Shown: positions 11,378 through 42,935 of the stretch, one piece after another
Layout: every line of letters begins with the position of its first letter
Numbering within the stretch: position 1 is the first letter of the stretch
Origin: an uncultured Anaerolineae bacterium
Lineage (GTDB): Bacteria; Chloroflexota; Anaerolineae; SpSt-600
Length of the DNA stretch: 55,013 nt
NCBI GenBank assembly: GCA_964655275.1
Contig: CAZZMI010000004.1
Location: 1-55,013 of the forward strand
Direction of reading: 5' to 3'
The notes under the pieces: generated by a model
Told to the model about the DNA's origin: nothing
Databases searched by the model: none
The model's input: only the letters and a program-made list of their open reading frames with translations
Translations under genes and position numbers: made by a program

Positions 11378-12897
11378 GTTGCACCGAACCTTTTACGAAG
11401 CTCCGTTTTCAGGACCTTGCCTGCGGGATTGCGAGGTAGTTTGTCCACAAAGACCACATATTTGGGGACCTTGTAGCGGGCAATTTTCCCTTCACAGAAC
11501 CGGATGACTTCTTCTTCGGTAAGGGTGTAGCCGGGTTTAACCACAACTATGGCTTTCCCCACTTCACCCCATTTAGGGTCAGGCACGCCGATGACGGCTA
11601 CTTCTGCTATTTGCTCCATCTGGTAAAGGACGTTCTCCACTTCAGCCGGGTAAACGTTTTCCCCGCCGGAAATATACATGTCTTTTAGCCGGTCCACGAT
11701 ATAGTAGTATCCATCCTCATCCACCCTGGCCAGGTCTCCGGAGTGAAGCCACCCATCGGTAAAGGACTCAGCGGTTGTTTCCGGCTGTTGCCAGTATCCA
11801 GGAGTAACCCCAGGGCCTTTTATCCACAGTTCGCCCACCTCTCCCGGTGGCACATCCCGCCCTTCCCGGTCTACGATGCGCACTGCCACGTGCATCTGGG
11901 GTTTGCCCACCGAGCCCGCTTTGGATATGGCATGCTCTTTATCAATCAAGAAGACGGTAGGGCCTGTTTCAGTCATGCCGAAGCCTTGTTGGATAATGAT
12001 GCCCCTTTCTGCATACCAATGTAATAAATGGACAGGCATTGGAGCACCACCGCAGGCCCAGGAGCGGACACGGGAAAGGTCATACTTATCAAAATCTGGA
12101 TGCTGGCTCATGAAGAGATACATTGCAGGCACGCCAAAAAAGGCCGTAGCCTCTTCCGAGAGAAGGCGAAGGGTCTCGGCCGGGTCAAAAGAACGCTGGA
12201 TTATGGCAGTCCCACCCACGTGGAAAGTAGGGTTAGCATAGAGGTTAAGGCCACCGGTGTGGAAAGTGGGGAGGACATTGAGGGTCACGTCTTCCGATGT
12301 CAAATCAATGGCGATGCCGATATTGACGGCATTGTAGAAGACCATCCCGAAGGTCTGAATTACTCCTTTAGGGCGCCCTGTTGTGCCGGCAGTATACAAT
12401 AAATGCCAAACATCGTTCAATGAGCGAGGAGGCATAACGATCGGCTGCCCGCTGGCCTGGGCCAGGGCTTTTTCATAAGCCCACTCACCCTCAGGAGCTT
12501 TCTCCCCAAGTGCCATGAGCAATGTGGCTGTCGTGTGCTCTTTTAAGTAATGGGCAGCCTCGGAGAAATCGGGATCGTATATAAGGGCACGGGGGGATGC
12601 ATCGTTAACGATAAGCTCCAGCTCCGGCAGAGCCAGCCGCCAGTTGAGGCAAACCAATATCGCTCCTACCTTAGCGCAACCGTAGAGGATTTCAAAATAA
12701 TCGGAAGAATTGCAGGCCAAGATAGCTACCCGTTCTCCTTCCCTGATTTTCCATTCATCCCGGAGGAATTCGGCGAAGCGGCTAGCTCGTTCGTTAAACT
12801 GGGCGTAAGTCCACCGGCGGCCCGTAGCTACATCTATAAGGGCGACCTTATTGGGTGAGAGTTCCGCTCGCTTGGCTAACCAGTCAAAGGTGTACAT
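11374..12897 (-). CDS. Acyl-CoA synthetase (AMP-forming, fatty acid--CoA ligase family)
   Basis: YTAGTTGRPKG, GFGMTE, SGDL, SGGENVYPAEVE, GKVLK. Confidence 0.92.
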   Translation of the reverse strand: MYTFDWLAKRAELSPNKVALIDVATGRRWTYAQFNERASRFAEFLRDEWKIREGERVAILACNSSDYFEILYGCAKVGAILVCLNWRLALPELELIVNDASPRALIYDPDFSEAAHYLKEHTTATLLMALGEKAPEGEWAYEKALAQASGQPIVMPPRSLNDVWHLLYTAGTTGRPKGVIQTFGMVFYNAVNIGIAIDLTSEDVTLNVLPTFHTGGLNLYANPTFHVGGTAIIQRSFDPAETLRLLSEEATAFFGVPAMYLFMSQHPDFDKYDLSRVRSWACGGAPMPVHLLHWYAERGIIIQQGFGMTETGPTVFLIDKEHAISKAGSVGKPQMHVAVRIVDREGRDVPPGEVGELWIKGPGVTPGYWQQPETTAESFTDGWLHSGDLARVDEDGYYYIVDRLKDMYISGGENVYPAEVENVLYQMEQIAEVAVIGVPDPKWGEVGKAIVVVKPGYTLTEEEVIRFCEGKIARYKVPKYVVFVDKLPRNPAGKVLKTELRKRFGAT

Positions 12898-26530: not shown

Positions 26531-27155
26531 AGAGCAGATCGTGCTTTTACTCCAGCAGCTTTTCCAGACCATTGGATGGACCGGGGTAATAATAGCAATG
26601 GCTATAGAAAGCGCTTGCATTCCTCTTCCCAGTGAGATTGTGATGCCTCTTGCGGGATGGATGTTAGTGCAAGCTCAGGGTTTCTCGCCCTGGCACACTG
26701 CCTGGGCTGGCTTTATGGGTGCTCTGGGTTGTACCATAGGCTCCATCTTCACCTACTGGTTTGGAGCTAAAGGTGGAAGGCCTTTATTGCTGCGTTACGG
26801 CAAATACATCCTTATATCCAAGCATGATATTTACATGGCTGACAGGTGGTTTGAAAGGTATGGTGAGTCCACAGCCTTTTTCTCCAGGCTTATGCCCATA
26901 GTCCGCACTTTCATCTCCCTTCCGGCGGGTGTAGCCCGGATGAATTTTCCCCGCTTTGTGATCCTTACCTTTATCGGTTCTTTCCTCTGGTGCTGGGTCC
27001 TGGCTTTCGCTGGTTACCTTTTCGGAGAGCACTGGAGGGAAGTCAGGGAAATAATGCGCCCATTTGATATACCCATAGCTATAGCCCTACTGGCTCTGGT
27101 AGCATGGTATATCTACCGCCACATAAAGCGTTATAACGAACTGGAAAAGGAGTAA
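26517..27155 (+). CDS. DedA family membrane protein
   Basis: ESACIPLPSE, RLMPIVRTFISLPAG. Confidence 0.92.
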   Translation: MHAIEEQIVLLLQQLFQTIGWTGVIIAMAIESACIPLPSEIVMPLAGWMLVQAQGFSPWHTAWAGFMGALGCTIGSIFTYWFGAKGGRPLLLRYGKYILISKHDIYMADRWFERYGESTAFFSRLMPIVRTFISLPAGVARMNFPRFVILTFIGSFLWCWVLAFAGYLFGEHWREVREIMRPFDIPIAIALLALVAWYIYRHIKRYNELEKE

Positions 27156-27334
27156 AATACCAGCAGTGCTCCTCCTGACGCAGGCAGCCCACCTCGTTAC
27201 CAGTCCCAGAACTGTTCTTATCCGGCCCCGGAAAAAGGTATAGGCCAGCGCTTGTGAAGAATCCACTATTCTAAAGGCAACTGCTTCCTCATTGGGCCCT
27301 CTATTAGTTTTATAGCCAAATCTGGCTTTGGAAA

Positions 27335-27387
27335 TTGACACCAAGCCATTTTTGGAGTATAATGTTTGTGAAAAAAAGTACAAACAT
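27335..27387 (+). promoter_or_regulatory. Consensus promoter of focA with overlapping palindromic operator (Rex-like)
   Basis: TTGACA(27335)-17 bp-TATAAT(27358); inverted repeat atgtttgt-N10-acaaacat at 27362-27387. Confidence 0.7.
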
Positions 27388-27446
27388 GGCGAGAGGTTTT
27401 CTGACCGTTAAGCAAAGCAAACAAACCTTAATATTAGGAGGACGCC

Positions 27447-28709
27447 ATGAGCAACGAACTGCAAATTGATGCCTACCCCCCGGCTAAGATGGCCAGCCGC
27501 ATGGAAGAAATAGGAGTCACCAAAGCGAAAATGGACTTCTGGACCATGTTCACTCTTGCCGTCCTGGCTGGCGCTTTCATTGCTACAGGAGGGATTTTCC
27601 TGACAACGGTGACAACAGGGCTAAGCGCAGCCGGTGTACCATATGGGTTGGTCCGGCTGGTAGGGGGCTTGGTTTTCTGCCTTGGCCTGATTGCTGTAGT
27701 GGTTGGAGGGGCAGAACTCTTCACTGGAAATAACCTCATAATTATGGCCTATGCCAGCGGCCGGATAACGACAGCTCAGCTACTCCGCAACTGGGCCATC
27801 GTATATGTCGGCAACTTCGTCGGCTCTGTATTGACAGCTCTGGTTATGTTCCTGACCGGTCAATACATGTTCGCCTCTGGAGCCCTTGGACTTAATGCTC
27901 TTTCCATCGCTAATGCCAAGTGCAACCTGGGATTTGTCCAGGCCATTGCCCTGGGCATCATGTGCAATGCCCTGGTTTGTCTAGCTGTATGGCTTTGCGC
28001 CTCAGCCCGGTCCACCACCGATAAAATCCTTTCCATCCTTTTCCCCATCACAGCTTTCGTCGCAGCTGGGTTTGAACACAGCATCGCTAACATGTATCTC
28101 ATTTCCATCGGGTTATTCATTAAATCATGGGCTCCACCAGCTTTCTGGGAAGCCATTGGCAGAGTGCCTGCCGACTTCCCTTATCTTACCTGGCCAGCTT
28201 TCTTCCTGAGGAACCTCCTGCCGGTGACCATAGGAAATATAATTGGCGGGGCGGGGTTCGTGGGTTTCATCTACTGGTTCGTATACCTTCGCCCGAAGAA
28301 GGTTGTAGAAGTTGCTCCGGGGATTATGCCACGAATTCTTGTGGTTGATGACGACCCGGATTTCGTGGATCTGTGCCGGAGAATCCTTTCTAAAGAGGGT
28401 TATCAGGTAAGCGCGGCCAGCGATGGCCAGCAAGCTCTGAGCATGATGCAGAACGAGCAACCCGACCTGGTGTTGCTGGATGTGATGATGAGAACCCCTC
28501 TGGAAGGGGTGACAGTGGCAGAAAAGATTGCGGCTGATCCCAAACTCAAGACAATTCCCGTGGTTATGGTTTCCAGCATAGATAGTAGCCAGTATGCTAA
28601 CCTACTGCCCGATACCCTCCATATCCCTGTGGATGCCTGGATAAGTAAGCCAATAGACCCGGATCACCTCGTGCGTACTGTCCGCCGCTACGTGAAAAGC
28701 AGACGATAA
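27447..28709 (+). CDS. focA: Formate/nitrite transporter (FocA/FdhC-like) fused to C-terminal receiver (REC) domain
   Basis: FNT motifs GAELFTGN, GFEHSIANM, PVTIGNIIGG; from aa ~294 a REC domain: ILVVDDD, DLVLLDVMM, SKP. Confidence 0.88.
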   Translation: MSNELQIDAYPPAKMASRMEEIGVTKAKMDFWTMFTLAVLAGAFIATGGIFLTTVTTGLSAAGVPYGLVRLVGGLVFCLGLIAVVVGGAELFTGNNLIIMAYASGRITTAQLLRNWAIVYVGNFVGSVLTALVMFLTGQYMFASGALGLNALSIANAKCNLGFVQAIALGIMCNALVCLAVWLCASARSTTDKILSILFPITAFVAAGFEHSIANMYLISIGLFIKSWAPPAFWEAIGRVPADFPYLTWPAFFLRNLLPVTIGNIIGGAGFVGFIYWFVYLRPKKVVEVAPGIMPRILVVDDDPDFVDLCRRILSKEGYQVSAASDGQQALSMMQNEQPDLVLLDVMMRTPLEGVTVAEKIAADPKLKTIPVVMVSSIDSSQYANLLPDTLHIPVDAWISKPIDPDHLVRTVRRYVKSRR

Positions 28710-28782
28710 ATAAAGGGTCTGGTGCTTTTCCCCGGCCAATGTTAAAATACATTATGAGATAACCTTTAACCCGGGGAAAAAC

Positions 28783-29952
28783 ATGAATACTTCCATACGC
28801 GTTTTGGTTGTAGACGACGAAATCGGCATCAGAGAAGGATGCCGACGGGTATTAGCCCCACGTGGTTTTGAAGTAGATGTAGCCGAGAACGGCCCTACAG
28901 GTTTACACAAACTTCGGGAATCCCGTTATGATGTTCTTTTGTTGGACATAGTAATGCCCGGAATGAGCGGGATGGAGGTTCTCCGCCAGGCCCGCCAGAT
29001 AGATCCCGATCTCATCTGCATCGTCATTACAGGTTATGCCACTGTGGAGCTGGCTGTTCAGGCTATCCGTGAAGGGGCCCATGATTTCATCGCCAAACCT
29101 TTCTCCGGCGACCTTCTCTTACAGGTCATAAACCGGGAACTGGAACGGAGAACTCTTCGCAAAGAAGCGGAGCGGCTTAAAGCTTTGGAAGAGGAAGCGC
29201 GTGAACTGGCCCGCACCAAGGCCGAGCTTCAAAAGCTGGAAGCCGTAGAGAGCCGCTTTATGCTCACTCTGGTGCACATATTGCGAGCCCCTGTAGCTGT
29301 CATCCAGAACACAATCCAATTAATCCGCAAAGGATACATTCCGCCCGAGGAACAATCGGAAGCATTGGAACGCCTTGAAATAAGGGCTACAGAGTTGCTA
29401 ACAACTTTGGATGACCTTTTACTTTTAGCACACCTTAAGGAGAGGATTGGCTTAAGCAAAGCGGAAAAAGTCTCCTTGGCAGAAGTGCTGAACGAGGTCC
29501 TGGCTAACCTGAAACCTTCTGCTGACCGGCAGGGCTTGACCCTGGAAGTTGATATAAGGGATTCTCCACGAGTGCAGGCCAATCCCGATCACATAAAAGC
29601 CGTTTGGAAACATCTTATTGATAATGCTATCCGCTATACTCCCTCAGGCGGTCGGATAACTATATCGGTCTGGCCCGATCATGAGCGCAGGATGGCTGTT
29701 GGTGCTGTTTCTGATACTGGTATCGGGATCCCGGTTGATGAAATTCCTCGCATCTTTGAGGAGTTCTACCGAACTCAGGAAGCAAAGCGCATGCACGAGA
29801 TAGGCACTGGCTTGGGCCTGCCCATTGTCAGGCAGGTGGTGGAAATGTATGGAGGGACAATTGAAGTGGAGTCTGAAGTTGGCAAGGGAAGCACTTTCCG
29901 CTTCATGTTGCCTTTGGCAGAAGATCAGGACGATTTAGTTAAGCTCTGTTGA
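28783..29952 (+). CDS. Hybrid REC-histidine kinase (atypical H-box)
   Basis: VLVVDDE, LLLDIVMP, AKPF; VHILRAP; DNAIRYT, DTGIGI, GTGLGL. Confidence 0.9.
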   Translation: MNTSIRVLVVDDEIGIREGCRRVLAPRGFEVDVAENGPTGLHKLRESRYDVLLLDIVMPGMSGMEVLRQARQIDPDLICIVITGYATVELAVQAIREGAHDFIAKPFSGDLLLQVINRELERRTLRKEAERLKALEEEARELARTKAELQKLEAVESRFMLTLVHILRAPVAVIQNTIQLIRKGYIPPEEQSEALERLEIRATELLTTLDDLLLLAHLKERIGLSKAEKVSLAEVLNEVLANLKPSADRQGLTLEVDIRDSPRVQANPDHIKAVWKHLIDNAIRYTPSGGRITISVWPDHERRMAVGAVSDTGIGIPVDEIPRIFEEFYRTQEAKRMHEIGTGLGLPIVRQVVEMYGGTIEVESEVGKGSTFRFMLPLAEDQDDLVKLC

Positions 29953-29975
29953 TGTTCTGTAGGAAGGGGGAAGAC

Positions 29976-31952
29976 GTGAAAAAATTTCTCTTGCAGCTTC
30001 TGGGTGGGCGATTAAGAACTACCCTCATTATATCCTTTGCCCTGGTGGCTGTCCTGACGGTAGGGCTGAATGCCATTGCGGTCTCCCGCGTCATAAATGA
30101 TTATCTGTCCTCGGCCGAGGCAGAAAGGGTGGCGCGGGACATGAAACTGGCCGAGACCTTATATCAGCTTAAACTTGATGAGGTTGCCGCTATAAGCCAC
30201 CGGCTGGCACTTGACCAGTGGGTTCTGGAGAACTTTCCCAAAGCTGCCCAAAAAGACCCGCATGCGATCCAGATCATTGACCGGCAAATTACCAACAAAA
30301 TAATCGTCCTGGCCCTGGGCGGCACACACCTCATAGCCCTTTTAGATACTGAGGGCAACCTGGTAACCGGAAAGGTGCTCTGGCCCGATGGAGAACTCTC
30401 TCCTCCGTTGACCGAAGGACAGTTCGGTGATCTGCCCATTTTCCGCACCACTATAGAAACCGGCAAACCCCAGGCGGCTACTGAGATAATCCCGAAAGAG
30501 ATCCTGGCTCAAGTTGGGCTGGATAAACAGGCCTATATTCCATTGCTTGAAACACCATTGGCCGCTCCAGAACCCTTTGACCCTCGGGAGGGGACAGCAG
30601 GTCTGGCCTTGGTGGGAGTTTTCCCGCTCAAGGACAACGAAGGAAATCTCTTTGGAGCTGTCCTTTCGGCCTACATGTTCAATAATGATTATACCCTGGT
30701 GGATCGGATTAAAGAGGTTGCCGGGATAGACACCGTTACCATATTCTTAGGAGATTTGCGGGTCTCCACCAACGTAACTGATGAGGCAGGACGCCGCGCT
30801 ATAGGTACCCGAATCTCCCAAACAGTCCGCAAGGTTGTCCTGGAGGAGGGTCAGGAATATATTGGGCGTGCCTTTGTGGTGAAGGAATGGTTTATAACCC
30901 GGTATGAACCGCTTAGGGACCACAAGGGCAATGTAGTAGGTAGTTTATATGTCGGGGCACGAGAATCCACTTTCCTGGCTTTAGTCCGGGCCTTCAACCA
31001 GCGAGTTGCTTTGATAGCTATAGTTTGTATTCTGTTAGCGGCGGCTATTGCCTTCCCCATTGGTCACCTTATAATGCTGCCTCTTACCGAACTGCTGGAA
31101 GCACATCGCCGTCTGGCGGCTGGGGACATGTCTGTCCGGGTTAATATTTACGGCAATGGTGAACTGGCTGTATTGGGCCGCTCCTTCAACAGCATGGTGG
31201 AAACCCTGTACCGTGCTCAGCAAGAGCTTATCCACAAAGAGAAACTGGCCTCCATGGGGCAGCTTGCCGCCGGTGTGGCTCATGAGTTGAACAACCCTCT
31301 TGGCACCATAATGCTTTTTGCTGATGCCCTTGCCCAGGAGCTTCCACCTGATCATCCTTATCAGAAGGATTTAAAGATGATCTTGGATGAAGCAAACCGT
31401 GCTAAGAAAATAGTGGCTGGACTCCTTAACTTCGCCCGCCAGCAAGAGGTATTGGCTCAGGACACCGACCTGCATAGCTTACTGGACCAGGTTCTGGAGA
31501 ACCTCCGGCATCAGCCAATCTTTGCCGGAATAGAAATCGTCAAACATTATGACCCGAAAGTCCGCATTATTCAGGCGGATCCCGCTCAACTGCAACAGGT
31601 TTTCATCAACCTCCTCACGAATGCCGCTGAAGCCATAAACGGGCCCGGAACTATAACCGTAACCACGCGAGCTTTAAATGGACAGGTAGAGATCTCAATA
31701 GCCGACACCGGATGTGGCATTCCTCCAGAGCATATGAACAAGCTTTTCACCCCCTTCTTTACCACAAAGCCACCAGGTAAAGGGACAGGACTTGGTCTTT
31801 CCATCGTCTATGGGATTGTTAAAATGCATAGAGGACAGATCAATGTCCAGAGCGAGGTAGGCAAAGGGACGACCTTCACAATTACTTTACCGGTGCGATG
31901 GATGGGGAAAGCGGAGCGTCCGATTTCTTCCTTTGAGGAAACCATTGGCTGA
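29976..31952 (+). CDS. Membrane sensor histidine kinase (Cache-HAMP-HisKA-HATPase, NtrB-like core)
   Basis: Two TMs flanking a Cache-like region ([13 protein letters not shown]...RAIGT), [36 protein letters not shown]; GTG start 29976 chosen on RBS. Confidence 0.9.
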
Positions 31953-31963
31953 GGTGGCTTATT

Positions 31964-33115
31964 ATGAGCGAACCCCCGCGCATACTTGTGATTGATGACG
32001 AGGAAGGAATCCGAGCAGGCTGCCGAAGGGTCTTGGAGCCAGAGGGCTATATAGTGGAAACTGCAGCCACTGGGCAGGAAGGACTGCGTCTATTTATGGA
32101 AGGGAACTTTGACCTGGTACTCTTAGATGTAGTCCTCCCTGATATGCGCGGTATTGACCTTTTAAAGCCAATGCTGGAGAAGGACCCGGATGTTATATGT
32201 GTGATCATTACAGGTTACGCTACCATAGAACTGGCAGTCCAGGCTATCCGGGCCGGTGCTTATGATTTCCTTTCCAAACCCTTTACGGCGGATGTTTTGA
32301 AACTGGTTGTAGCCCAGGGTCTGGAGCGACGACGACTTTCTTTAGAGGCAAAACGCCTGCAAAAAATTGAAGAAGAAGCGCGAGAGCTTGCGCGCGCCAA
32401 GGAGGAATTGGAGCGGCTGGATCGCTTTAAGACTATGTTCATGCTTACAGTAGCTCATGAGCTACGCGCTCCCCTGAATGCCCTCCAGAGCTTCCTCCTG
32501 GCAATCCTTAAAGGATACATACCCCCTGAAGAGCAAAGGGAAGTTCTGGAGCGGGCTGCTCAACGGACACAGGATCTGATAAACCTGGTGGATGACCTTC
32601 TTAAACTCGCTGCAGCCAAGAGCGAAAAAGGGCTGGAAAAGCGTGAACCCATCTCTTTGGCCGATGTCCTGGAAAAAATATTCCCTCTCTTTAAAGCCGA
32701 GGCAGATTCAAAAGGCATTAATTGCACTCTGGAAATTCGTCAGCGGCCAATCGTTCAAGCCGACCCGGACCAGATGGCTCAGGTATGGAGCAACCTCATT
32801 TCTAATGCGGTGAAATACACTATGCCCGGTGGGAAAGTGCAGGTTATTCTGGAAGAGCGAGACGGATGGGCCATAGGGATAGTAGAGGATACTGGCATTG
32901 GCATTGCCCGGGAAGATTTAGAGCGAATATTTGAAGAATTCTACCGCACTCCTCAAGCTAAAAAATTGGTGCCTCACGGAACCGGGCTCGGGCTTCCTTT
33001 GGTCAAACAAATTGTGGAGGCTCATGGAGGAAATATAACGGTGGAATCAGAATTAGGACGCGGAAGCCGCTTCACATTTCGGATACCCGTAATAGAAAAA
33101 AACCGGCCGGATTGA
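31964..33115 (+). CDS. Hybrid REC-histidine kinase (paralog of 28783-29952)
   Basis: [43 protein letters not shown]. Confidence 0.9.
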
Positions 33116-33148
33116 TTAACAAAACCGGCCGGCCTTTACAGTCTATGT

Positions 33149-33529
33149 CTATTTCTTCTTTAAAGCCTCTTCTATCCGCGCCAGCAACTGGTCCGGATCT
33201 ATTGGTTTGTGTATCCACTCATCCACCGGAACATACTCCCCGGATGGAGCTATACCTTGAGCCCGCGCTCCAGTGAGCGAGGTCACCATTATGACCGGGA
33301 TATCTTTAAGTTCTGGATCCTGCGCCATCTCACGGCTGACATCAATTCCGTCCAAGATGTAGGACATCATGATGTCCAGAAGCACCAGATCGGGCTTTTC
33401 TTTGCGCATTACCCGGAGCGCTTCCTGACCGCTGGCGGCGGTAATCACCTCGTAACCTTTAGTTTTGAGAATCCGCTGAGTAAGTTTAACGAAATCAGGA
33501 TCATCATCCACTACCAGGATTTTAGCCAT
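33149..33529 (-). CDS. Single-domain response regulator (last gene of fdh operon)
   Basis: ILVVDDDPD, DLVLLDIMM, HKPID; 126 aa, no output domain. Confidence 0.9.
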   Translation of the reverse strand: MAKILVVDDDPDFVKLTQRILKTKGYEVITAASGQEALRVMRKEKPDLVLLDIMMSYILDGIDVSREMAQDPELKDIPVIMVTSLTGARAQGIAPSGEYVPVDEWIHKPIDPDQLLARIEEALKKK

Positions 33530-33549: not shown

Positions 33550-34278
33550 CTAATGCCCACCCTTGTGTGCGGCCTCCCGCTTCTTAGCTTCCCATATCTC
33601 CATCGCCCTCTTGGGGCCATAGAACCACTTGGCGTGGTGCTCAGCAGCGTAATCGGCAGAAGTTACACCAAACCGCATGCTTACCAGGGCTGCCCACATG
33701 AGCGGGTGAGCTACTGCAAGGTAAAGGTGAATCAGGAACATGCATGCCGAGGCAATCATAGCCAGGTCGTGGAAGAGCACCGCCCAGCGGAAAATGATCG
33801 GCGAAACCACCCCTTTCCCGAACCACATAATGAGCCCAGTAATCCCAAAAACTACCCAAGCAATAATCATTACTAGGCCATTTAGTTTCTCACCAGCATT
33901 GAAACGGCCCTGAGGTGGCATTGCCTCATGTCTTCCGAAGAGGTAGTAGGGAATAGCACCCTTTAACCAGCCAATATCCTCTTTTTCGGGAAGGAAATCA
34001 CGGATATTCATAATGAAGCGGCGAGGTTGTATTATGGCGTAGAGGATGGGCACAAGGCCGAAGAACACCGCAGCAATGCGATGGATCAACCTGAGGAAAA
34101 TGCCTGCTTCCCCCTGAGCCAAAGGTTGCAAGAAGGGGAAATAGAGGACCATCCCAGTCAGAAGCAGGGGAATGAAGGTAGCGGTATGGGCCCAGTGGAC
34201 TATTCTTTCCATAAGGGTGTACTTTGGAATCCACTGGATCGTGACAATTTCCGGTTTGCCTTTAATCTGGACGCTCAT
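33550..34278 (-). CDS. fdnI: Formate dehydrogenase gamma subunit (cytochrome b)
   Basis: ERIVHW, RLIHR, GRFNAGEK, LFHD, IHLY, AEHHAKW heme-ligand pattern. Confidence 0.92.
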   Translation of the reverse strand: MSVQIKGKPEIVTIQWIPKYTLMERIVHWAHTATFIPLLLTGMVLYFPFLQPLAQGEAGIFLRLIHRIAAVFFGLVPILYAIIQPRRFIMNIRDFLPEKEDIGWLKGAIPYYLFGRHEAMPPQGRFNAGEKLNGLVMIIAWVVFGITGLIMWFGKGVVSPIIFRWAVLFHDLAMIASACMFLIHLYLAVAHPLMWAALVSMRFGVTSADYAAEHHAKWFYGPKRAMEIWEAKKREAAHKGGH

Positions 34279-35075
34279 TTCACCTCCTCCATGCGAATAT
34301 TACGGCGCGCGATAAAGAAAGCCCCCAGAATGCCCAGGATGGTGGCGCCAAAAGCCACTCCACCCAGAGGCTGGACCACTTTCTGCCACACAGTGGCCAG
34401 GGCAGGGAATTCCACCTTAGCGGGCAGACCATATGCCTCCGGCGGAGCTATTAAAACGTAGATCCGGCCAAGGCCCCCTACTTCATTGACCCCATACACA
34501 TTAGCCTGGGTGTAGCCGCGAGCCTTCAGCTCTTCCACCCTGGCCATAGCTTTAGCCACAATCTCTTCCCGATCACCAAAATCTAAAGCTTTGGCCGGGC
34601 AAGTTTTGACACAGGACGGAAGCAGGCCATTGGTCACCCGATCTTGACAAAAAGTGCATTTATAGGATTTCCCTTTTCCGGTAAGTGGATCAAACTCTAG
34701 CCTGGGGATATTGAAGGGACAAAACTGAGAGCAGTAGCCACAACCATTGCATAGCTCACGCTCTAGGGTGACCATGCCATAAGGATGTTTCTTCAAAGCC
34801 CCGGTGGGGCAAACAGCCACGCATGCCGGATTGCCACAGTGCATGCACCCTTCCTTCAAGAAAAGCCAGCGGAAACCATCCGGCCCCGTGTACTCAGTGA
34901 AGCGGATGCGGGTCCAGGTATGAGGTGAAAGATCCGGCGGGTTCTCGTAGGTGCCCCGGTTGCGAGTACGGGAATAGAGCCACCCTTCCCGATCGTTCCA
35001 CTGCTTACAGGCAACCTGGCAACCACGGCATCCAACGCACTGGGAGGTATCAATTAACATTGCTAATCTTGCCAT
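34275..35075 (-). CDS. fdnH: Formate dehydrogenase beta (iron-sulfur) subunit
   Basis: CVGCRGCQVAC, CMHC..PACVAVCP, CNGCGYCSQFCP, CTFC..PSCVKTCP; C-terminal TM helix. Confidence 0.93.
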   Translation of the reverse strand: MARLAMLIDTSQCVGCRGCQVACKQWNDREGWLYSRTRNRGTYENPPDLSPHTWTRIRFTEYTGPDGFRWLFLKEGCMHCGNPACVAVCPTGALKKHPYGMVTLERELCNGCGYCSQFCPFNIPRLEFDPLTGKGKSYKCTFCQDRVTNGLLPSCVKTCPAKALDFGDREEIVAKAMARVEELKARGYTQANVYGVNEVGGLGRIYVLIAPPEAYGLPAKVEFPALATVWQKVVQPLGGVAFGATILGILGAFFIARRNIRMEEVK

Positions 35076-35085
35076 GTTTCACCTC

Positions 35086-38000
35086 CTACGCTTTCTCTAT
35101 ATCAACAAGGAAAGCCTTGAATTCCGGCATAAGTGTGGCTGGGTCACAGGCATGGGGGGTAAGGAAGTTAGCAGTGCTCTGGACCAGATCTTTCACGCCT
35201 ACATCGTAAGGCAAGCCCTTCCAGCCCCAGTGCCAGGGCAGCCCTACCACATGCACGGTCTTGCCGTTAACCTGTAGTGGCTTGATACGCGCAGTAACGA
35301 TGGCTATGGCCTCAATCTCCCCGCGGGCGGACTTAACCTTCACCTTGTCGCCGTTCTTGATGCCCTTCTCGGCAGCCAGCTCCTGGCTCATCTCCACGAA
35401 CATCTCCGGCTGAGCCTCCACCAGCCAGTCCAGCCAGCGAGACATGCCACCCGCTTGCCAGTGCTCTACTAAGCGGTATGTAGTAGCAACGATGGGGAAT
35501 TTATCGGGAGTGCCATAGTTATCACCAATGTCCTTACCCTCATCGGTCCTGTAAACTTTGGCGACTGGGTTGGTCTGCTGGCTGGAAAGGAGGTTCTTCA
35601 CCGGAGACTCAATGGGCTCATAATGCTCCGGCAAGGGGCCTTCGGGCATCGGGGCAAAGAGTGCACCTTTGCCGTGAATCATCATGATAAATGGATCGCG
35701 CCCACCGGGGTCAGTAGGGGCCTTGGTAGCCGGGAAGTCAGGCACATCATAACCTACCCACTTCTTCTGGGCTTCATCCCACCAGATGTACTTGCGGTCC
35801 TCTGACCAGGGTTTGCCATTAGGATCAGCAGAACAGCGGTTGTAGACGATACGGCGGTTAGCGGGCCAAGCCCAACCCCAGTATGGATAGTTGCCGTAAC
35901 CACCAGGGTCATAAACACTATTGCGTCGCTTGGCCGCGGGCATCATGTTACCGAACCCATCGGGCTGGAGGGAGAAGTAGCCGGTGTAAATCCAAGCACC
36001 GCAAGCAGTGGAACCATTGTCCTGGAGGTGAGCGAAGGTGCTAAGCACTGTCCCTTTCTTGGCCAGGATGTTCCCTTCCGCATCCTTCACATCTTCCAGA
36101 GCATAACCGTTAATTTCCTGAGCTACCTTTTCAATATCCAGCTCTTCACCGTAGTCCCACTTCAGGTGAATAATGGGGTCTGGGAAAGGACCAGGGTCGG
36201 CTTTGTAAAGTTCCTTGAGCTTCAGAGCGATGAGGTTAATGATCTGATGGTCAGGTTTCGCTTCACCCGGGGGCTCGGCAACTTTAGGCCGCCACTGGAT
36301 AGTGCGACCGCTGGTGACTATGCTGCCGGGTTTCTCCATTGCATCAGCTGCAGGCAGGACGAAAACCTCAGTCTTGATCTGGGTTGGGTCCTCACCCGGA
36401 GCCCGCCAGAAAGAGGTGGTCTCGGTGTCAAAGATTTCCTGAACTACAAGCCAATCCAGCTTCTTAAGAGCCTCTCGCTCAAAGCGGGAGTTTGGACCAC
36501 AGACCGCCGGGTTCTGTCCCATAATCCAGAGCCCCTTGATTTTGCCAGCATACATGGCTTCAAACATCGGGACCCAGGAGTGGTTAGCCGGGACATCGGG
36601 CTTAGGTAGGTAATCGTAGGCAAAATCGTTGGCCGTGGTAGCATGATCGCCCCACCATGCCTTCAGCAGGCTGATCAGGAACTTAGGGCCATTGACCCAA
36701 TAACCGCCCGACCAGGGGCCACCAGGCTTGGTCTTGTTCTCAATGTATGTCTTGAGATCTTTATCAGCAGGTGTGGGAACAGGCAAGTAACCAGGCAGAA
36801 TGTGAGCCAGAACTCCCATATCCGTGGAGCCCTGCACGTTGGACTCACCGCGCAAGGCATTAACACCACCACCAGGGATGCCGATGTTGCCCAGGAGCAG
36901 CTGGACAATGGCGAGAGCACGCACATTTTGGGAACCTACAGTGTGTTGAGTCTGACCCATTGCATAGAGGATAGTGCCGGCTTTGCCTGGCCGTCCTGAT
37001 TCAGCATATGTCTTGTAGATTTTCTCCAACAAATCCTTCGGGATGCCCGTAACCTGGGAAACGGTGTCCAAGGTGTAGCGAGCGTAATGGCGTTTCATTA
37101 TCTGGAAAACACACCTGGGATGCTGAAGCGTTTCATCGCGCAGAGGTTTGCCTTCTTCGTCGGTCTGGTAAGTCCATGTGGAACGGTCATAAGCACGCTT
37201 CTCAGGATTGTAACCCGAGAAAAGCCCGTCCAACTCATCGGGACCTTTATAATCGGGATGGACAAGGAAGGAAGCATTGGTGTAATGGACGACGTACTCC
37301 TTGTGGTAAAGCTCGTTATCCAAGATGTACTTAATCATTCCACCGAAGAAGGCAATATCAGTTCCTGGGCGGATTTGAGCAAAGATATCAGCCTGGGTGG
37401 CGGTACGAGTAAAGCGTGGGTCTACAACGATGACCTTAGCTCCGCGCTTCCTCTGGGCTTCATGGATCCATGTCATAGAAGCTGGGTGGTTTTCCGCAGC
37501 ATTGGAACCTATGATAAGGATGTAATCGGCATTTTTGATGTCCACCCAGTGGTTGGTCATTACTCCGCGACCATATGTGGGGCCGAGACCGGCCACCGTT
37601 GGGGAGTGTCATATCCGCGCTTGGTGGTCTATGTAGACCAGACCTAAGGCTCGGGTTAGCTTGACTGCCAGGTAACACTCTTCGGAGTTATTGGCCGCAC
37701 CGCCGAGGAAGGCAATAGCCTGGGTGCGGTTAACGGTTACCCCCTGCTCATTGGTGCGCTCAAAGGTAGCATCGCGGGTAGCTTTGATCCGCTTGGCAAT
37801 TTCGGTAATTGCCCAGTCCCATTCAACTTCTTGCCACTCCTTAGCGCCGGGAGCACGATAGAGGGGCTTCTTCAGACGGAGAGGGCTCTGGGAAAGCTGC
37901 CGGACAGAGATAGATTTGGGGTCAAGGGCACCACGGTTATGAGGGTTGTCCGGGTCACCTTCAGCGTTTATAATGTGCCCATCTGGGCCGGTAGCTATTA

Positions 38001-38172
38001 TCAGACCACAACCGCAGGAGCAGTATGGACAGATGGTCGCTGCTTCCTTTACTTTCTTATGAAGTGGGAAAACCGGGACAGTGGTAGCTGCCAGAGCTTT
38101 TGATGAAGGTATAAGTAAACTTCCGCTGGCTGCAGCTGTCAGTTTCAGGAATTCCCTTCGTGTAATCTTCAT
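35086..38172 (-). CDS. fdnG: Formate dehydrogenase alpha subunit, selenocysteine-containing, Tat-exported (1028 aa with UGA read-through)
   Basis: ORFs 37609-38172 and 35086-37596 are in the same frame, joined by HQARI-UGA-HSPTV; Tat motif TRREFLK; CPYCSCGC; ALRGESNVQG; SECIS immediately 3' of the UGA. Confidence 0.95.
37577..37611 (-). promoter_or_regulatory. Sec UGA codon (37611-37609) and bacterial SECIS element
   Basis: UGA CAC UCC CCA ACG GUG GCC GGU CUC GGC CCC AC: GGCCG/CGGCC stem with GUCU loop, at the same position and with a similar apical sequence as the E. coli fdhF SECIS. Confidence 0.85.
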
Positions 38173-39044
38173 AGCTCCTCCTCCTGTGCGAAGGTTTCAA
38201 AAATCCCATAACCTTCCTGGCGAGCTGCTATGTCCAGAGGCAAAGTGATTATCCGTTCCACTGGGAGCAGTGGCTCCTCCACCAGCTCCCGTAAATCTAT
38301 TACCTTTAGATAACGGCGACAACGATCGCAAAGGTATAGCCGATATTTACCGTTTTCCGAAGGCACATAAAGATACTGGTCAGGATTATCGTTGCCGCAG
38401 AAAGGACAAGAAAGCCTTCGGTAGGGCCATTCAAAATCGCAGCGGGAACAGAGCAGCCAACGAGCTCCATAGGGTTTGGTTAAAGCTGCAAAATCTGGCT
38501 CCCCGCCGCAGACCGGACAATAAGGTTTATACCATGTTTCAATGTTTATAAGTGGGGCTAACATGCGTGCATAGCAGCGCAGGAAGGGATGAAAAGTATT
38601 GTTAAGCACAAACTGAAAAAGGTGCGGCTTAAATCCTGTTTCCTTTGCCAGGAGATCAGCCTCGCCCCGGAGGTAATATCTGGACGCTGAAAGTAAGCGA
38701 TCATCCTGGCCACCAGGCCAGCGGCTTATGGGCTCCAAAGCAGGAGCTAAATCAGGAAAATAGCGGGCGGTAATGGCGCAAATCTCTTCCCATAACCATC
38801 GGATTTGCCCGGAATCGGCCTGAAAATCTTCGGGGACTAATGCTGGGAAACCCCTGCTAAGCCTGGCCTCAACACTTTCTCCTGAAAGAGGGGGCGGGAA
38901 AAAAGCGGTTTCCACGCGCGCTTGTGCTGAGAAGATAGCCAGATAGGGCATACTTATTTCCCTTAACTCCGGCCGTTCCGCTATACGACGATTCAACTCC
39001 TCGGCCAACTCTTTGGCCTCCACAGGCCTGGCTTTGGCTTCCAT
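38169..39044 (-). CDS. fdhE: Formate dehydrogenase maturation protein FdhE
   Basis: CPVCGG, LLCSRCDFEW, RLSCPFCGN, CDRCRRYLK; first gene of the fdh operon; start MEAKARP at 39044. Confidence 0.9.
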   Translation of the reverse strand: MEAKARPVEAKELAEELNRRIAERPELREISMPYLAIFSAQARVETAFFPPPLSGESVEARLSRGFPALVPEDFQADSGQIRWLWEEICAITARYFPDLAPALEPISRWPGGQDDRLLSASRYYLRGEADLLAKETGFKPHLFQFVLNNTFHPFLRCYARMLAPLINIETWYKPYCPVCGGEPDFAALTKPYGARWLLCSRCDFEWPYRRLSCPFCGNDNPDQYLYVPSENGKYRLYLCDRCRRYLKVIDLRELVEEPLLPVERIITLPLDIAARQEGYGIFETFAQEEEL

Positions 39045-39072
39045 AAAGACCTCATCGGCTTTAGCTTTTTGC

Positions 39073-39101
39073 ATTATAACAAAATTGGCTATTATTGTCA
39101 A
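39073..39101 (-). promoter_or_regulatory. Sigma70-type promoter of the fdhE-fdnGHI-REC operon
   Basis: Minus strand TTGACA-17 bp-TATAAT with extended TG. Confidence 0.8.
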
Positions 39102-41012: not shown

Positions 41013-42935
41013 ATGGCTTCTAAAGAGCTGGCTCGCTGGCTTAAAGAACGTAAAGATTTAGTGGTAGTCAAGTGGATAAGAGCCGTAAGGAAAGTAAGTC
41101 CTGGGACTGATGCCCTCCTCTCAACGCGAGAATTAGGGGCTCGCCACCTTGAAGCTCTATATGAAGCATTCATTTTAGCCCTGGAAAAGGATGACACTGC
41201 AACCTTAGAAGCTATCCTGGAACAATTGGTCCGAGACCGCCTCAAGCGAGAATATAACCTTCGGGAAGTCCTGGTCATTGCCACAGAGCTCAAGAAAACC
41301 TGCTGGGAAGAGATCACTAAAGAATTCCCCTCTCTCCAAGCCATGGAATACATCAGGGCGACAGATGAAATCTTTAACCATATGATCGTAAAAATGGCCA
41401 ACACGTTCACCGAAGAAAGCTTTGCCCTTATCAAAAGGCTTAATAAGAGCCTTGAGCAAAAGGTAAGGGAAAGGACTAAAGAGTTGCAGAAGATCAAGGA
41501 TGAACTGGAACGCATAGACAAAGCCAAATCCGATTTCATCCGAATAGCCGCCCACGAACTGCGTACTCCTCTAACCTTGATCCAGGGCTACGTAGGGATG
41601 TTGACGGCTGAAGGTTTTCCTGAGAAAGAACGTTTCCGTTCCATACTCCAAGGGTTAAACAAAGGTATAGCGAGGCTTGAGTCCATAATTCGTGACCTCA
41701 TAGATGTCTCTTACATTGATGCTGAAGTCCTTACCCTGAGCATTCAACCTGTATCAATGCCTCAAATCTTCCAGTCCCTTGTGGTGGAATTTCAACCCGC
41801 CCTCCAGTCCAGGCGCCTGAATCTTACTATTTCAGGCTTAGAGGAATTGCCCCAGGTGGAAGGCGATCCCCAGCGACTTCGTCAAGTTTTCTACAACCTC
41901 CTCAGCAACGCCATAAAATACACCCCCGATGGCGGCTCCATTACCGTTACCGGAAATTTAATCAAGGGGGAAACAGACTTTGTCCACATAGCCATTAAGG
42001 ATACAGGGATAGGTATCCCACCCGATAAGCTTGAACGTATCTTTGACAAGTTCTACCGGGTTGAAGATTTCAAGCACCACAGCACCAGCAAAACCGAATT
42101 CAAAGGAGCAGGGCCTGGACTTGGGCTCACCATTGCCAAAGGGGTAGTGGAAGCGCATGGGGGCAAGATCTGGGCTGAAAGTCCTGGTTACGATGAAGAA
42201 CGCTTCCCAGGAAGCACTTTCCATGTCCTTTTGCCTGTTAAAGCCCAGCCCTCAAGTAATGTATACGTTCATCAACTTAAGATGCCTGTTAGAGCCGTAA
42301 TTTTTGATTTAGATGGGGTCATGGTGGACACGGCCCCTTACCACTTCCAGGCCTGGCAGAAAGCTCTGGCTGAATTTGGCCTGGAAATGAGCTACGAACA
42401 ATTCCGCTCCACTTTTGGAATGCGGAACCAGGAAATAATCCGTGCTATTTTCGGCTCCAGGTTTACCTCTGAACAAGTGGAAGAAATCGGCCGGCGTAAG
42501 GACCTTATTTACCGGGAACTTGTATACAAACACCTGACCCCAATGCCTGGCCTTTTGAGACTGATCCAGGACCTCAAAGCAAAGCGATTCCGCATCGCTG
42601 TAGCTACCTCTACCTCCAAAGCCAATGCCTCTCTCATCCTTAAAACCCTGAAACTTGAGCACGAAATAGTGGCCCTTGTAACTGAAGAAGATGTAGAAAA
42701 TGGCAAACCGGACCCGGAAATTTTCCTCAAAGCAGCTGAAAAATGTCTGGCTGAACCTGAAAACTGCATTGTTATAGAGGACTCCCCAGCGGGGATCCAG
42801 GCGGCAAAGGCTGCCGGAATGAAAGTCATTGCCCTGACTACCACCAGACCTCCAGAAGAACTTAAAGAGGCCGATTTGATAGTGGAAAATCTTATGATGC
42901 TGACCCCGGAAATCTTGGAGAGTCTGCTGGAATAA
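41013..42935 (+). CDS. Soluble histidine kinase (RsbRD_N-like sensor) fused to HAD-family phosphatase (beta-phosphoglucomutase-like)
   Basis: AAHELRTPL, NLLSNAIKYT, DTGIGI, GPGLGL; then in frame IFDLDGVMVDT, VATS, GKPDPEIF, IEDSPAG. Confidence 0.88.
   Translation: MASKELARWLKERKDLVVVKWIRAVRKVSPGTDALLSTRELGARHLEALYEAFILALEKDDTATLEAILEQLVRDRLKREYNLREVLVIATELKKTCWEEITKEFPSLQAMEYIRATDEIFNHMIVKMANTFTEESFALIKRLNKSLEQKVRERTKELQKIKDELERIDKAKSDFIRIAAHELRTPLTLIQGYVGMLTAEGFPEKERFRSILQGLNKGIARLESIIRDLIDVSYIDAEVLTLSIQPVSMPQIFQSLVVEFQPALQSRRLNLTISGLEELPQVEGDPQRLRQVFYNLLSNAIKYTPDGGSITVTGNLIKGETDFVHIAIKDTGIGIPPDKLERIFDKFYRVEDFKHHSTSKTEFKGAGPGLGLTIAKGVVEAHGGKIWAESPGYDEERFPGSTFHVLLPVKAQPSSNVYVHQLKMPVRAVIFDLDGVMVDTAPYHFQAWQKALAEFGLEMSYEQFRSTFGMRNQEIIRAIFGSRFTSEQVEEIGRRKDLIYRELVYKHLTPMPGLLRLIQDLKAKRFRIAVATSTSKANASLILKTLKLEHEIVALVTEEDVENGKPDPEIFLKAAEKCLAEPENCIVIEDSPAGIQAAKAAGMKVIALTTTRPPEELKEADLIVENLMMLTPEILESLLE

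Follow-up and report, generated by a model that had tools for sequence, protein, structure and literature searches.

A FocA-type formate channel with a C-terminal receiver domain, encoded beside sensor kinases and a formate dehydrogenase operon in an uncultured Anaerolineae bacterium

The window, the whole 55,013-nucleotide stretch of DNA that we analyzed, comes from an uncultured Anaerolineae bacterium and contains a gene that joins a FocA-type channel of the formate/nitrite (FNT) family to a response regulator receiver (REC) domain. Kinase genes follow this focA-REC gene on the same strand, and beyond them, on the opposite strand, lies a formate dehydrogenase (fdh) operon whose last gene encodes a stand-alone REC (Table 1). 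The start codon of focA-REC is preceded by a ribosome-binding site, AGGAGG, 4 nucleotides 5' of the ATG, and farther upstream by a candidate sigma-70-like promoter. No terminator-like site was found between focA-REC and kinase 1 (28710-28782), the listed plus-strand sites all falling inside open reading frames (ORFs); co-transcription of focA-REC and the kinase genes is therefore possible. An Rfam scan (E <= 1) of positions 27100-28900, which include the 290-nucleotide leader and the gene, gave no matches to RNA elements.

Table 1. Features of the focA-REC locus, with positions in the window
Feature	Position	Strand	Description
Sigma-70-like promoter (candidate)	27335..27363	+	TTGACA-17 nt-TATAAT; consensus match 12/12; ~85 nt before focA-REC start codon
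focA-REC fusion gene	27447..28709	+	420 aa, stop codon included in coordinates; single ORF without internal stop
FNT (FocA-type) channel domain	27489..28280	+	Residues 15-278; pore residues T93, H211
Y-L-R motif	28284..28292	+	Y280-L281-R282; immediately C-terminal to TM6
Linker	28293..28331	+	Residues 283-295 (13 residues); consensus P-Q/K-K-V-V-E-V-K/A-P-G...
REC domain	28332..28691	+	Residues 296-415; D301/D302, D345, S376, W398, K401
Kinase 1, REC-HisKA-HATPase	28783..29952	+	Receiver-controlled histidine kinase (domain search)
Membrane sensor kinase, sCache_3-HAMP-HisKA-HATPase	29949..31952	+	Domain search; co-occurs with fusion
Kinase 2, REC-HisKA-HATPase	31964..33115	+	Domain search
Stand-alone REC	33149..33529	-	126 aa; last gene of fdh operon; 50% identical to channel tail
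fdhC	33550..34278	-	Cytochrome b (domain search)
fdhB	34275..35075	-	4Fe-4S subunit (domain search)
fdhA	35086..38172	-	FDH-N-type alpha subunit, 1028 aa; TIGR01553 1302 bits vs cutoff 814
FdhE-like accessory gene	38169..39101	-	Pfam FdhE_central 28.2 bits vs cutoff 27, weak match

Profile searches recovered both parts of the protein. Form_Nir_trans (Pfam PF01226) matched residues 15-278 with 263.1 bits against a cutoff of 34.6 (E 2.8e-78), and Response_reg (PF00072) matched residues 297-412 with 80.5 bits against 30.2 (E 1.3e-22), taking in positions 1-110 of the 111 in the profile. The protein also exceeded the cutoffs of the NCBIfam model "formate transporter FocA" (TIGR04060, 301.5 versus 290.1 bits) and of fnt (TIGR00790, 247.4 versus 232.3 bits), and it fell below the threshold of the enterobacterial model NF008069 (299 versus 440). 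The channel carries the motifs ELFTGN at residues 90-95 and FEHSIAN at residues 209-215, whose T93 and H211 we take to be the counterparts of T91 and H209 in the central pore of E. coli FocA. An AF2 monomer model of the fusion (pLDDT 83) has the six-helix aquaporin-like FNT fold, and Foldseek superposed it on E. coli FocA (9g49/9i3k) with a TM-score of 0.93-0.94 and a root mean square deviation of 1.8-2.0 Å.

The receiver has an acidic pocket (D301-D303), the predicted phospho-acceptor D345 in LLDVMM (codon 28479-28481), S376, and K401 within SKP. Its modeled elements follow the (beta-alpha)5 order, with strands at residues 296-300, 320-324, 341-345, 372-376, and 397-400 and helices at 304-316, 327-337, 353-363, 380-386, and 405-415. 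The linker was modeled with a pLDDT of 82-89 and includes a short strand at 287-289. The segment from alpha4 to beta5 (SSIDSS..A.LLPDD.HIP.DAWISKP) is long and strongly conserved, and the REC loop at residues 381-390 is conserved, yet has a pLDDT of 55 in the model. A complex prediction for two copies of the FNT domain and the REC tail, run with alignments and without controls, scored 0.00, which speaks neither for nor against docking.

The FNT-REC fusion is real and not an artefact of assembly. The contig X10 record 1 (14,140 nucleotides) covers positions 27400-28800 with 5 substitutions and no indels, X12 record 10 covers 27877-28800 without a difference, and X2 record 17, which may be close to the source of the DNA, covers the entire stretch. 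An RNA-library contig of 230 nucleotides (X16 record 13, positions 28261-28490, 5 differences) also bridges the junction of FNT and REC, but it is only a weak hint, since RNA libraries can contain DNA. X16 holds 0.16 of the words; its contigs signify presence in an RNA library and not expression, and the parts of the gene that they leave uncovered carry no meaning. We give almost no credence to a misassembly or frameshift that joined focA to a separate REC gene, or to a REC that has become a nonfunctional pseudo-receiver. The junction is spanned without indels by contigs from other studies, the same fused ORF with both domains is present in all 120 of the best database clusters and in 26 Chloroflexota species genomes, and the catalytic residues are the same in 121/121 fused homologs. 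A 121-aa protein, P0199, which is 82% identical to residues 300-419, could represent a separate REC gene; a truncated gene call fits it equally well. The best clusters, the residue conservation, and the independent contigs already refute an artefactual or decayed fusion.

These results bear out an initial annotation, which had been made from the letters of the DNA. It had described FNT and REC in one uninterrupted ORF, and the 420-aa frame indeed has no stop between them; a complete FNT domain with conserved Thr and His, which the Pfam match and the two residues confirm; a linker PKKVVEVAPGI, which we located at residues 283-293; and an intact REC with acidic pocket, phospho-Asp, Ser, and Lys, for which every quoted motif was found. 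The resemblance it saw between the tail and the stand-alone REC amounts to 63/126 identical residues (E 6e-47). At the junction, independent contigs show neither stop nor frameshift, and most homologs are fused rather than encoded as separate genes.

The fusion is conserved. It was found at full length in 2/401 genomes sampled from Chloroflexota, a tally that includes six unpublished genomes (G145, G227, G038, G344, G173, and G272), none with the full-length fusion; they enter into no other result given here. The residues invariant in all fused homologs are D301, D302, D345, S376, and K401 of the receiver and T93 and H211 of the pore, and W398, the aromatic switch position, is kept in 120/121. 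Of the motif that follows TM6, Y280 and L281 never vary in alignment A1, and at least 90% of its sequences have R282. Seven residues are specific to the fused clade; four of them map to the N-terminal helix or the C terminus, both cytoplasmic, and none to the 49 periplasmic positions. Position 14 is K in 28/28 fused proteins, whereas in plain proteins it is E in 58/77 and D in 12/77, and the REC-less pair L061/L062 once more has E there. Judged by this sequence conservation, the fusion is under selection. Inside the fused clade, four genomes have lost the REC and kept a remnant of the linker. Because the channel has outlasted at least three losses of the REC, the latter is dispensable for basic transport.

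Other FNT channels also carry signaling domains. Among the long FNT representatives that we scanned, N-terminal REC, PilZ, and CBS fusions exist as well. The REC-FNT order occurs in P0141, P0144, and P0176, which have the canonical D/D/T-S/K residues; their receivers come from another REC lineage, and their channels form another FNT clade. As these lineages indicate, the design of an FNT domain with a signaling domain is convergent. There is also a Rosetta-stone pattern: in L069, L085, L088, and L091, which form a clade of plain focA loci, focA directly adjoins a kinase gene and one to three genes for small stand-alone RECs. FNT matches without a REC match were seen in open frames of 419-444 aa in three Chloroflexota genomes (G105, G364, and G087), which are probably other fusions. 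The earlier statement that FNTs normally have no signaling domain thus holds insofar as most FNTs are plain, and fails insofar as fused signaling domains are not rare.

A full-text search of the literature found no description of an FNT-receiver or FNT-CBS fusion, in keeping with the remark in the initial annotation that no characterized example was known. Within its main text, the 2017 FNT census (PMC5525234) makes no mention of a fusion, additional domain, response regulator, receiver, or CBS, and an archaeal two-component system census (PMC5847659) mentions neither "formate" nor "transporter." The FNT-REC architecture is conserved, yet we found no published description of it.

Positions 27447-33529 contain four REC domains and three kinase cores. 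Many receivers and kinases in one cluster are typical of branched phosphorelays. The membrane sensor kinase is 667 aa long, and its periplasmic Cache domain takes up about residues 40-350. In counts drawn from related genomes, which are not independent samples, a Cache sensor kinase lies within 10 kb of the channel gene in 13/26 fused loci versus 1/54 plain focA loci, and the sole plain locus (L060) is a member of the fused clade cut by a contig end. A REC-bearing kinase, orthologous to kinase 2, is near the channel gene in 15/26 fused versus 1/54 plain loci, and neither kinase type is near the fusion in 11/26 loci. Genome-wide, again among relatives, the Cache sensor is present in 23/26 fused genomes versus 2/44 plain-FocA Chloroflexota genomes; our search found none in the other three fused genomes. 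It is present in one of the four REC-loss genomes and absent from three. Linkage to the kinase is particular to channels that have a REC: across these related genomes, the kinase accompanies such channels and is mostly absent from REC-less relatives, the pattern of a cognate kinase. The earlier proposal of a wiring between the channel and the adjacent kinases gains comparative support from the linkage near the gene, the genome-wide counts, and the joint loss of REC and sensor in 3/4 genomes.

The fdh operon gives the fusion gene a setting of formate metabolism. Its fdhA has an in-frame TGA (Sec188) at 37609-37611, translated as U, and an N-terminal RR motif, MKITRREFLKL, which we take to be a Tat signal. 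In the REC tree, the stand-alone REC at the end of the operon shares a starred clade with the channel tail, and the two are of one subfamily. In six related fused loci, a REC of this subfamily is also found on an Lrp/AsnC regulator; for this reason, the pathway may act chiefly on transcription, and the channel tail would then serve as a competitor or sink. A search of the bacterium's own genome found no Lrp-REC, as all matches were confined to the REC part of the query. The cluster in the window has no DNA-binding response regulator, and the channel is the only non-kinase domain joined to a REC there.

These relatives of the tail bear on a reading in which the REC would not regulate the channel and would take part in signaling as a membrane-anchored receiver, a transceptor or phosphate sink; we regard this as unlikely. 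The REC might drain or buffer phosphoryl groups, or its accessibility might depend on the passage of formate, both of which we likewise think improbable. The channel would then report flux to the kinases, which would act via other receivers, the stand-alone REC or, where there is one, Lrp-REC, a version to which we assign a similarly low probability. The wealth of receivers and kinases in the cluster suits such a role, as do the same-subfamily RECs that stand alone or sit on Lrp/AsnC factors and the ability of the REC to disappear while the channel remains. However, with neither an Lrp-REC in the genome nor a DNA-binding output in the cluster, the stand-alone REC is the only obvious target that a pure sink could tune. 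A sink also leaves unexplained the short conserved linker after Y-L-R, the fused-clade changes on the N-terminal gating helix, and the independent FNT fusions to PilZ and CBS, which are ligand-binding regulators and not phosphate sinks.

The tail could also be a docking site. According to PMC12559229, E. coli FocA is controlled by cytoplasmic PflB placed over the vestibule, and this precedent suggests that a phosphorylated REC might recruit or release a cytoplasmic partner at the pore mouth, for substrate channeling and not pore gating. We consider this distinctly unlikely, and equally so for the candidate partners, an FdhF-type formate dehydrogenase, formate-tetrahydrofolate ligase, and pyruvate formate-lyase (PFL). 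Genes for FdhF-type alpha subunits adjoin the fusion in 9/26 loci, including L043 and L049, where they lie directly upstream and score above the TIGR01591 cutoff, but such a neighbor is equally common at plain loci (23/54) and so is not tied to the REC. The genome does encode FTHFS, and the alpha4-beta5 stretch is conserved but of low model confidence, as expected of a surface that binds a partner. That the REC stands in for PflB is unsupported: 23/26 fused genomes have PFL-like genes, though none was found in the bacterium's own genome, which is 96% complete. We dropped replacement of PflB by the REC as the gating partner as a general explanation, and, given these PFL-like genes, E. coli-style PflB gating may still operate.

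We return to regulation of the pore itself. We think it somewhat probable that the channel serves as the output of a response regulator and that two-component phosphorylation would gate or bias the flux of formate. The FocA-type part would form the usual FNT pore, and the REC, 13 conserved residues past Y-L-R at the cytoplasmic C terminus, would lie beneath the cytoplasmic vestibule. The periplasmic Cache sensor kinase and the two receiver-controlled kinases would together sense a signal in the periplasm, for which formate or some other small carboxylate is plausible, and would phosphorylate D345 in the tail of the channel as well as its sister, the stand-alone REC that the fdh operon encodes. 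In a two-tier version of this scheme, the Cache kinase would phosphorylate the receivers of the other two kinases, whose cores would in turn phosphorylate the tail and the stand-alone REC. The switch would work through one or more of four elements: the unusual, highly conserved face from alpha4 to beta5, the linker, Y-L-R, and the N-terminal gating helix. Movement of formate in both directions through E. coli FocA requires the Y-L-R motif (PMC5572259, abstract). The outcome would be posttranslational control of formate flux, coordinated with the adjacent periplasm-facing selenocysteine FDH-N. We infer the phosphotransfer to the tail, the identity of the signal, and the effect on the pore from the architecture, conservation, and kinase coupling. 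Weighing against gating are the losses of the REC with the channel kept, the fused loci that have no kinase nearby, and the fused genomes in which no Cache sensor was found.

The fusion can be compared with known channels and receivers. Over its channel part, it is 49% identical to E. coli FocA, with a TM-score of 0.93 to 9g49; it shares the Thr and His of the pore and the C-terminal Y-L-R with FocA of E. coli, Salmonella, and Vibrio (9g49, 3q7k, 3kcu, and 3kly), and, like that of E. coli, its gene lies in a formate-metabolism context. Unlike E. coli FocA, which ends 5 residues past Y-L-R (PMC5572259, abstract), the fusion has a 137-residue C-terminal extension bearing the REC. It further differs from E. 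coli FocA in its neighbors, which are kinases and FDH-N and not pflB, and in the clade-specific changes to its N-terminal helix, including K14 in place of E/D. The closest solved relative of the tail is the first receiver of PleD (9g85/1w25, E 5e-20). The tail resembles PleD and single-domain receivers in its acidic pocket, phospho-Asp, Ser, aromatic switch, Lys, and (beta-alpha)5 order. However, PleD-type receivers precede a soluble output domain, whereas this REC is the C terminus of a polytopic membrane channel, and its alpha4-beta5 segment is about 6 residues longer than in the canonical RECs aligned.

Cytoplasmic modules act on membrane pores in AmtB-GlnK, in ClC and MgtE with CBS domains, in BcsA with PilZ, and in phosphorylation-gated plant aquaporins. 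The proposal for the fusion is alike in that a cytoplasmic signaling module would act directly on the pore, but its trigger would be His-Asp phosphotransfer and not the binding of a nucleotide or second messenger or the phosphorylation of Ser. In DcuS-DctA/DcuB, a transporter that has no receiver domain modulates the kinase through contact. The fusion is similar in tying a carboxylate transporter to a periplasmic sensor kinase of the Cache/PAS type and differs in that the transporter itself bears the predicted phospho-acceptor.

A broader reading is that FNT pores as a class are directly signal-gated, with FocA-REC as the first response regulator to have a membrane-channel output; we put this forward as a tentative possibility. 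It is possible, though again rather doubtful, that small modules such as single-domain receivers dock on the cytoplasmic face of the FNT pentamer, in cis or in trans, and set its open state or direction. This class-wide reading unites the C- and N-terminal REC, PilZ, and CBS fusions, the loci with plain focA, kinase, and RECs, and the stand-alone REC of the fdh operon.

There is still debate on the gating of FocA-type channels and on how they change between export and import. To our knowledge, the only regulator of FocA is the enzyme PflB, which binds the N terminus in enterobacteria. A natural FocA with a covalent phospho-switch, if it is one, would offer a tractable genetic and biochemical handle on FNT gating, and, given its thermophilic (hot-spring) source, the protein should be a good subject for structural studies. 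That REC-FNT, FNT-PilZ, and FNT-CBS fusions occur in parallel indicates that formate/nitrite-family pores are widely subject to direct regulation and that this has been overlooked. If the proposed gating is true, membrane transport would join the list of two-component receiver outputs, and a role would be suggested for some of the many orphan single-domain receivers. A two-component system would then set metabolite flux posttranslationally and not via transcription.

The gene focA-REC, at 27447-28709(+), is a single 420-aa open reading frame (ORF) with no internal stops, preceded by an AGGAGG ribosome-binding site. This bears out the initial annotation, which had read it as a formate channel (FNT) joined in one frame to a receiver (REC) domain. 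On NCBIfam's FocA equivalog model TIGR04060 the protein scores 301.5 bits, above the 290.1-bit cut-off, and all the residues first quoted are in place: T93 in ELFTGN and H211 in FEHSIAN, the linker at 283-293, and D301-303, D345 in LLDVMM, S376, and K401 in the receiver. The proposed resemblance of the tail to the stand-alone receiver at 33149-33529(-) also holds (50% identity, E 6e-47). By all criteria that could be tested, it belongs to both FNT/FocA and REC, its parent families.

Ten residues (T93, H211, D301, D302, D303, D305, D345, S376, K401, and P402) are invariant in 121/121 fused homologues, and the aromatic switch position W398 is kept in 120. The same homologues show unusually strong conservation of the alpha4-beta5 segment (376-402), which exceeds its counterpart in aligned canonical receivers by about six residues. 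The linker (283-295), directly after Y280-L281-R282, is short and conserved. An AF2 model based on a 46-sequence alignment (mean pLDDT 83, pTM 0.75) predicts a receiver of canonical (beta-alpha)5 order and a linker with a short strand (pLDDT 82-89); confidence is low for loop 381-390 (pLDDT 55). Superposition of the channel part on E. coli FocA (9g49) gives TM 0.93 and 49% identity, and the nearest solved protein to the tail is the PleD receiver.

Thirteen sequencing runs contain the window at half or more of sampled words, 12 labeled hot-spring metagenome and one carrying a coded organism label. We aligned contigs of matching runs over 27400-28800, the junction check suggested at the outset. 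A 14,140-nt contig from run X10 covers the entire interval with five substitutions and no indels, and one from X12 covers 27877-28800 without differences. A contig from X2 likewise spans 27400-28800 but is possibly near the source of this DNA, and a 230-nt RNA-library contig (X16) bridging the junction (28261-28490) is a weak hint only. Contigs of two runs show an A>C difference at 28643, and residue 323 is A in the window and T in database representative P0001; both are ordinary strain variation.

Database evidence for the fusion is independent of the reads. In a search of 5.8 billion proteins, Form_Nir_trans and Response_reg are both found in 120/120 best clusters (70-100% identity, 416-455 aa), and 26 species-representative genomes (L032-L057) match residues 1-416 or more, with fused ORFs confirmed. 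All 26 are Chloroflexota metagenome-assembled genomes (MAGs), assigned to Anaerolineae, Anaerolineales, Thermoflexales, or Thermoflexus sp. (85% identity). In its own genome, a 2.04-Mb MAG that is 96% complete, focA-REC is the only FNT gene. An artefact is excluded, and the fused architecture is established and under selection. As far as full-text literature searches and an FNT census paper show, the combination is undescribed, in agreement with the earlier statement that no characterized example was known.

The fusion is lineage-restricted. Among 401 evenly sampled genomes of the phylum, including six unpublished ones (none with the fusion), the full-length form occurs only in the own genome and G015. 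About 30 other listed genomes of this sample encode a plain FocA of ~300 aa (56-65% identity). In a quick IQ-TREE of the FNT domain (141 rows), one clade (99% SH-aLRT) holds 26 of the 30 rows with a C-terminal REC, together with five "plain" rows. One of these five, L060, is a gene cut by a contig end; the others (L058, L059, L061, and L062) end at 298-310 aa, retain a linker remnant, have no REC downstream, and are secondary REC losses. The other fused rows, four in number (L056, L057, P0122, and a second L048 copy), are placed where the tree is unresolved or has long branches. Locus L048 has tandem focA-REC genes (9941-11290 and 11277-12590); the second has diverged to 48% identity with the query, and its FNT and REC domains are confirmed by Pfam.

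Three kinase genes follow focA-REC, their boundaries being short gaps or 4-nt overlaps, and no terminator-like site lies between focA-REC and these genes. Convergent to them is an FDH-N-type operon of fdhE-like, fdhA, fdhB, and fdhC genes, with the stand-alone REC last. Table 11 splits fdhA into two ORFs, which become one protein on TGA read-through; it scores 1302 bits on TIGR01553 (FDH-N alpha subunit), and its N terminus has an RR motif, MKITRREFLKL, which we take to be a Tat signal. Elsewhere in the window, a 640-aa protein (41013-42935, +) joins RsbRD_N, HisKA, and HATPase_c to a C-terminal HAD-type hydrolase domain, an unusual combination of histidine kinase and phosphatase-like domain.

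Features of focA-REC, its neighborhood, and related proteins
Feature	Position or protein	Strand	Remark
Perfect -35/-10 consensus	27335-27363	+	Upstream of focA-REC
Form_Nir_trans	focA-REC residues 15-278		Pfam E 2.8e-78
Response_reg	focA-REC residues 297-412		Pfam E 1.3e-22
REC-HisKA-HATPase kinase	28783-29952	+	Downstream of focA-REC
Membrane sCache_3-HAMP-HisKA-HATPase sensor kinase	29949-31952	+	
Second REC-HisKA-HATPase kinase	31964-33115	+	
fdhA	35086-38172	-	1028 aa; in-frame TGA 37609-37611 read as Sec188
ORF, 244 aa	39105-39839	-	No Pfam match at E<=1e-4; directly upstream of fdhE-like gene
ORF, 535 aa	44733-46340	-	No Pfam match at E<=1e-4
Lrp/AsnC-REC	L038:4878-5948, L041:3185-4033, L044:1804-2658		
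Lrp/AsnC-REC	L052:1332-2924, L054:3-1145, L055:5849-6922		
FNT-PilZ	P0126		Attributed in one source to a Candidatus Magnetominusculus MAG
FNT-CBS	P0128, P0131, P0171, P0175, P0190, P0228, P0253		Two separate FNT-tree clades

We compared focA loci, including as much as 10 kb of flanking DNA and counting sensor kinase (Cache-HK) orthologues at 45% identity or more. Cache-HK lies near focA in 13/26 fused versus 1/54 plain loci, the sole plain locus being the truncated L060, and orthologues of the REC-HisKA-HATPase kinases (REC-HKs) in 15/26 versus 1/54. An FdhF-type gene, which served as internal control, occurs at similar rates near both types (9/26 versus 23/54). Those of L043 and L049 are above the TIGR01591 cut-off and visible as a 550-aa ORF, a length probably due to a Sec codon. 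Searched genome-wide, the periplasmic sensor part of Cache-HK occurs in 23/26 fused genomes and that of L060, in 1/4 REC-loss genomes, and in 2/44 plain-FocA Chloroflexota genomes. Because the genomes are related, all these counts overstate independence. What carries most weight here is that separate lineages have lost REC and sensor together.

The best-supported mechanism, toward which we lean slightly, is that the linked Cache-HK/REC-HK system would feed a response regulator whose output is the channel, with D345 phosphorylation gating or biasing formate passage. A Pfam scan found no DNA-binding response regulator in the focA-REC/kinase/fdh cluster. That the receiver is instead a membrane-anchored phosphate sink or transceptor seems fairly unlikely.

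Seven positions (P11, K14, M19, G46, G270, F271, and P283) are fused-specific, each kept in 90% or more of 28 fused proteins but in no more than 25% of 77 plain relatives. Of the seven, four are in the cytoplasmic N-terminal helix or C terminus; the 49 periplasmic positions contain none. Plain FocAs have E or D where the fused proteins have K14, and the REC-less L061 and L062 have reverted to E. In E. coli FocA, the N-terminal region gates the channel and binds PflB (PMC12559229). The N-terminal changes are consistent with a receiver that may act on the gate, a clue that essentially comes down to one ancestral change and one reversal. That the tail instead offers a cytoplasmic enzyme a docking site controlled by phosphorylation is, in our estimate, distinctly unlikely. 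Substitution of the receiver for PflB is unsupported, as 23/26 fused genomes have PFL-like genes; none was found in the own genome (96% complete).

A starred split (96%) divides a REC tree of 77 rows in two. The first group, of 46 rows, comprises all channel tails, the stand-alone RECs of these loci, including 33149-33529, and the receivers of Lrp/AsnC-REC proteins; the second comprises receivers of REC-kinases and LuxR-type regulators and the N-terminal RECs of REC-FNT proteins. The Lrp/AsnC regulators (HTH_AsnC plus AsnC_trans_reg), with a C-terminal REC of the channel-tail subfamily, are encoded a few kilobases upstream of focA-REC at six fused loci. Such a layout is unusual for a transcription factor, and a search of the own genome found no example. 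At L069, L085, L088, and L091, which form one clade, a plain focA follows an fdhF-like gene, and genes for a histidine kinase and one to three small stand-alone receivers flank it, a possible split counterpart of the fusion.

For the wider pattern, we scanned 20 long FNT representatives from an exhaustive search of 1.84 billion representatives with Pfam: one is FNT-REC (P0122), three REC-FNT, one FNT-PilZ, and seven FNT-CBS, one has DUF4389, and seven lack a second Pfam domain. The metagenomic REC-FNT proteins P0141, P0144, and P0176 (425-452 aa) start with a receiver whose D/D/T-S/K residues are intact. In the FNT tree they make up a separate clade (98%), their receivers lie across the REC-tree split from the channel tails, and they are an independent fusion in the opposite order. 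In three Chloroflexota genomes, FNT matches at 53-54% identity without a REC match (G105:C1:328409-329245, G364:C17:60328-61155, and G087:C25:2630-3448) sit in 419-444-aa open frames, probably other C- or N-terminal fusions, possibly with CBS. Since the N-terminal REC proteins form their own clade and the CBS fusions two, FNT channels have been joined to cytoplasmic signaling modules several times independently.
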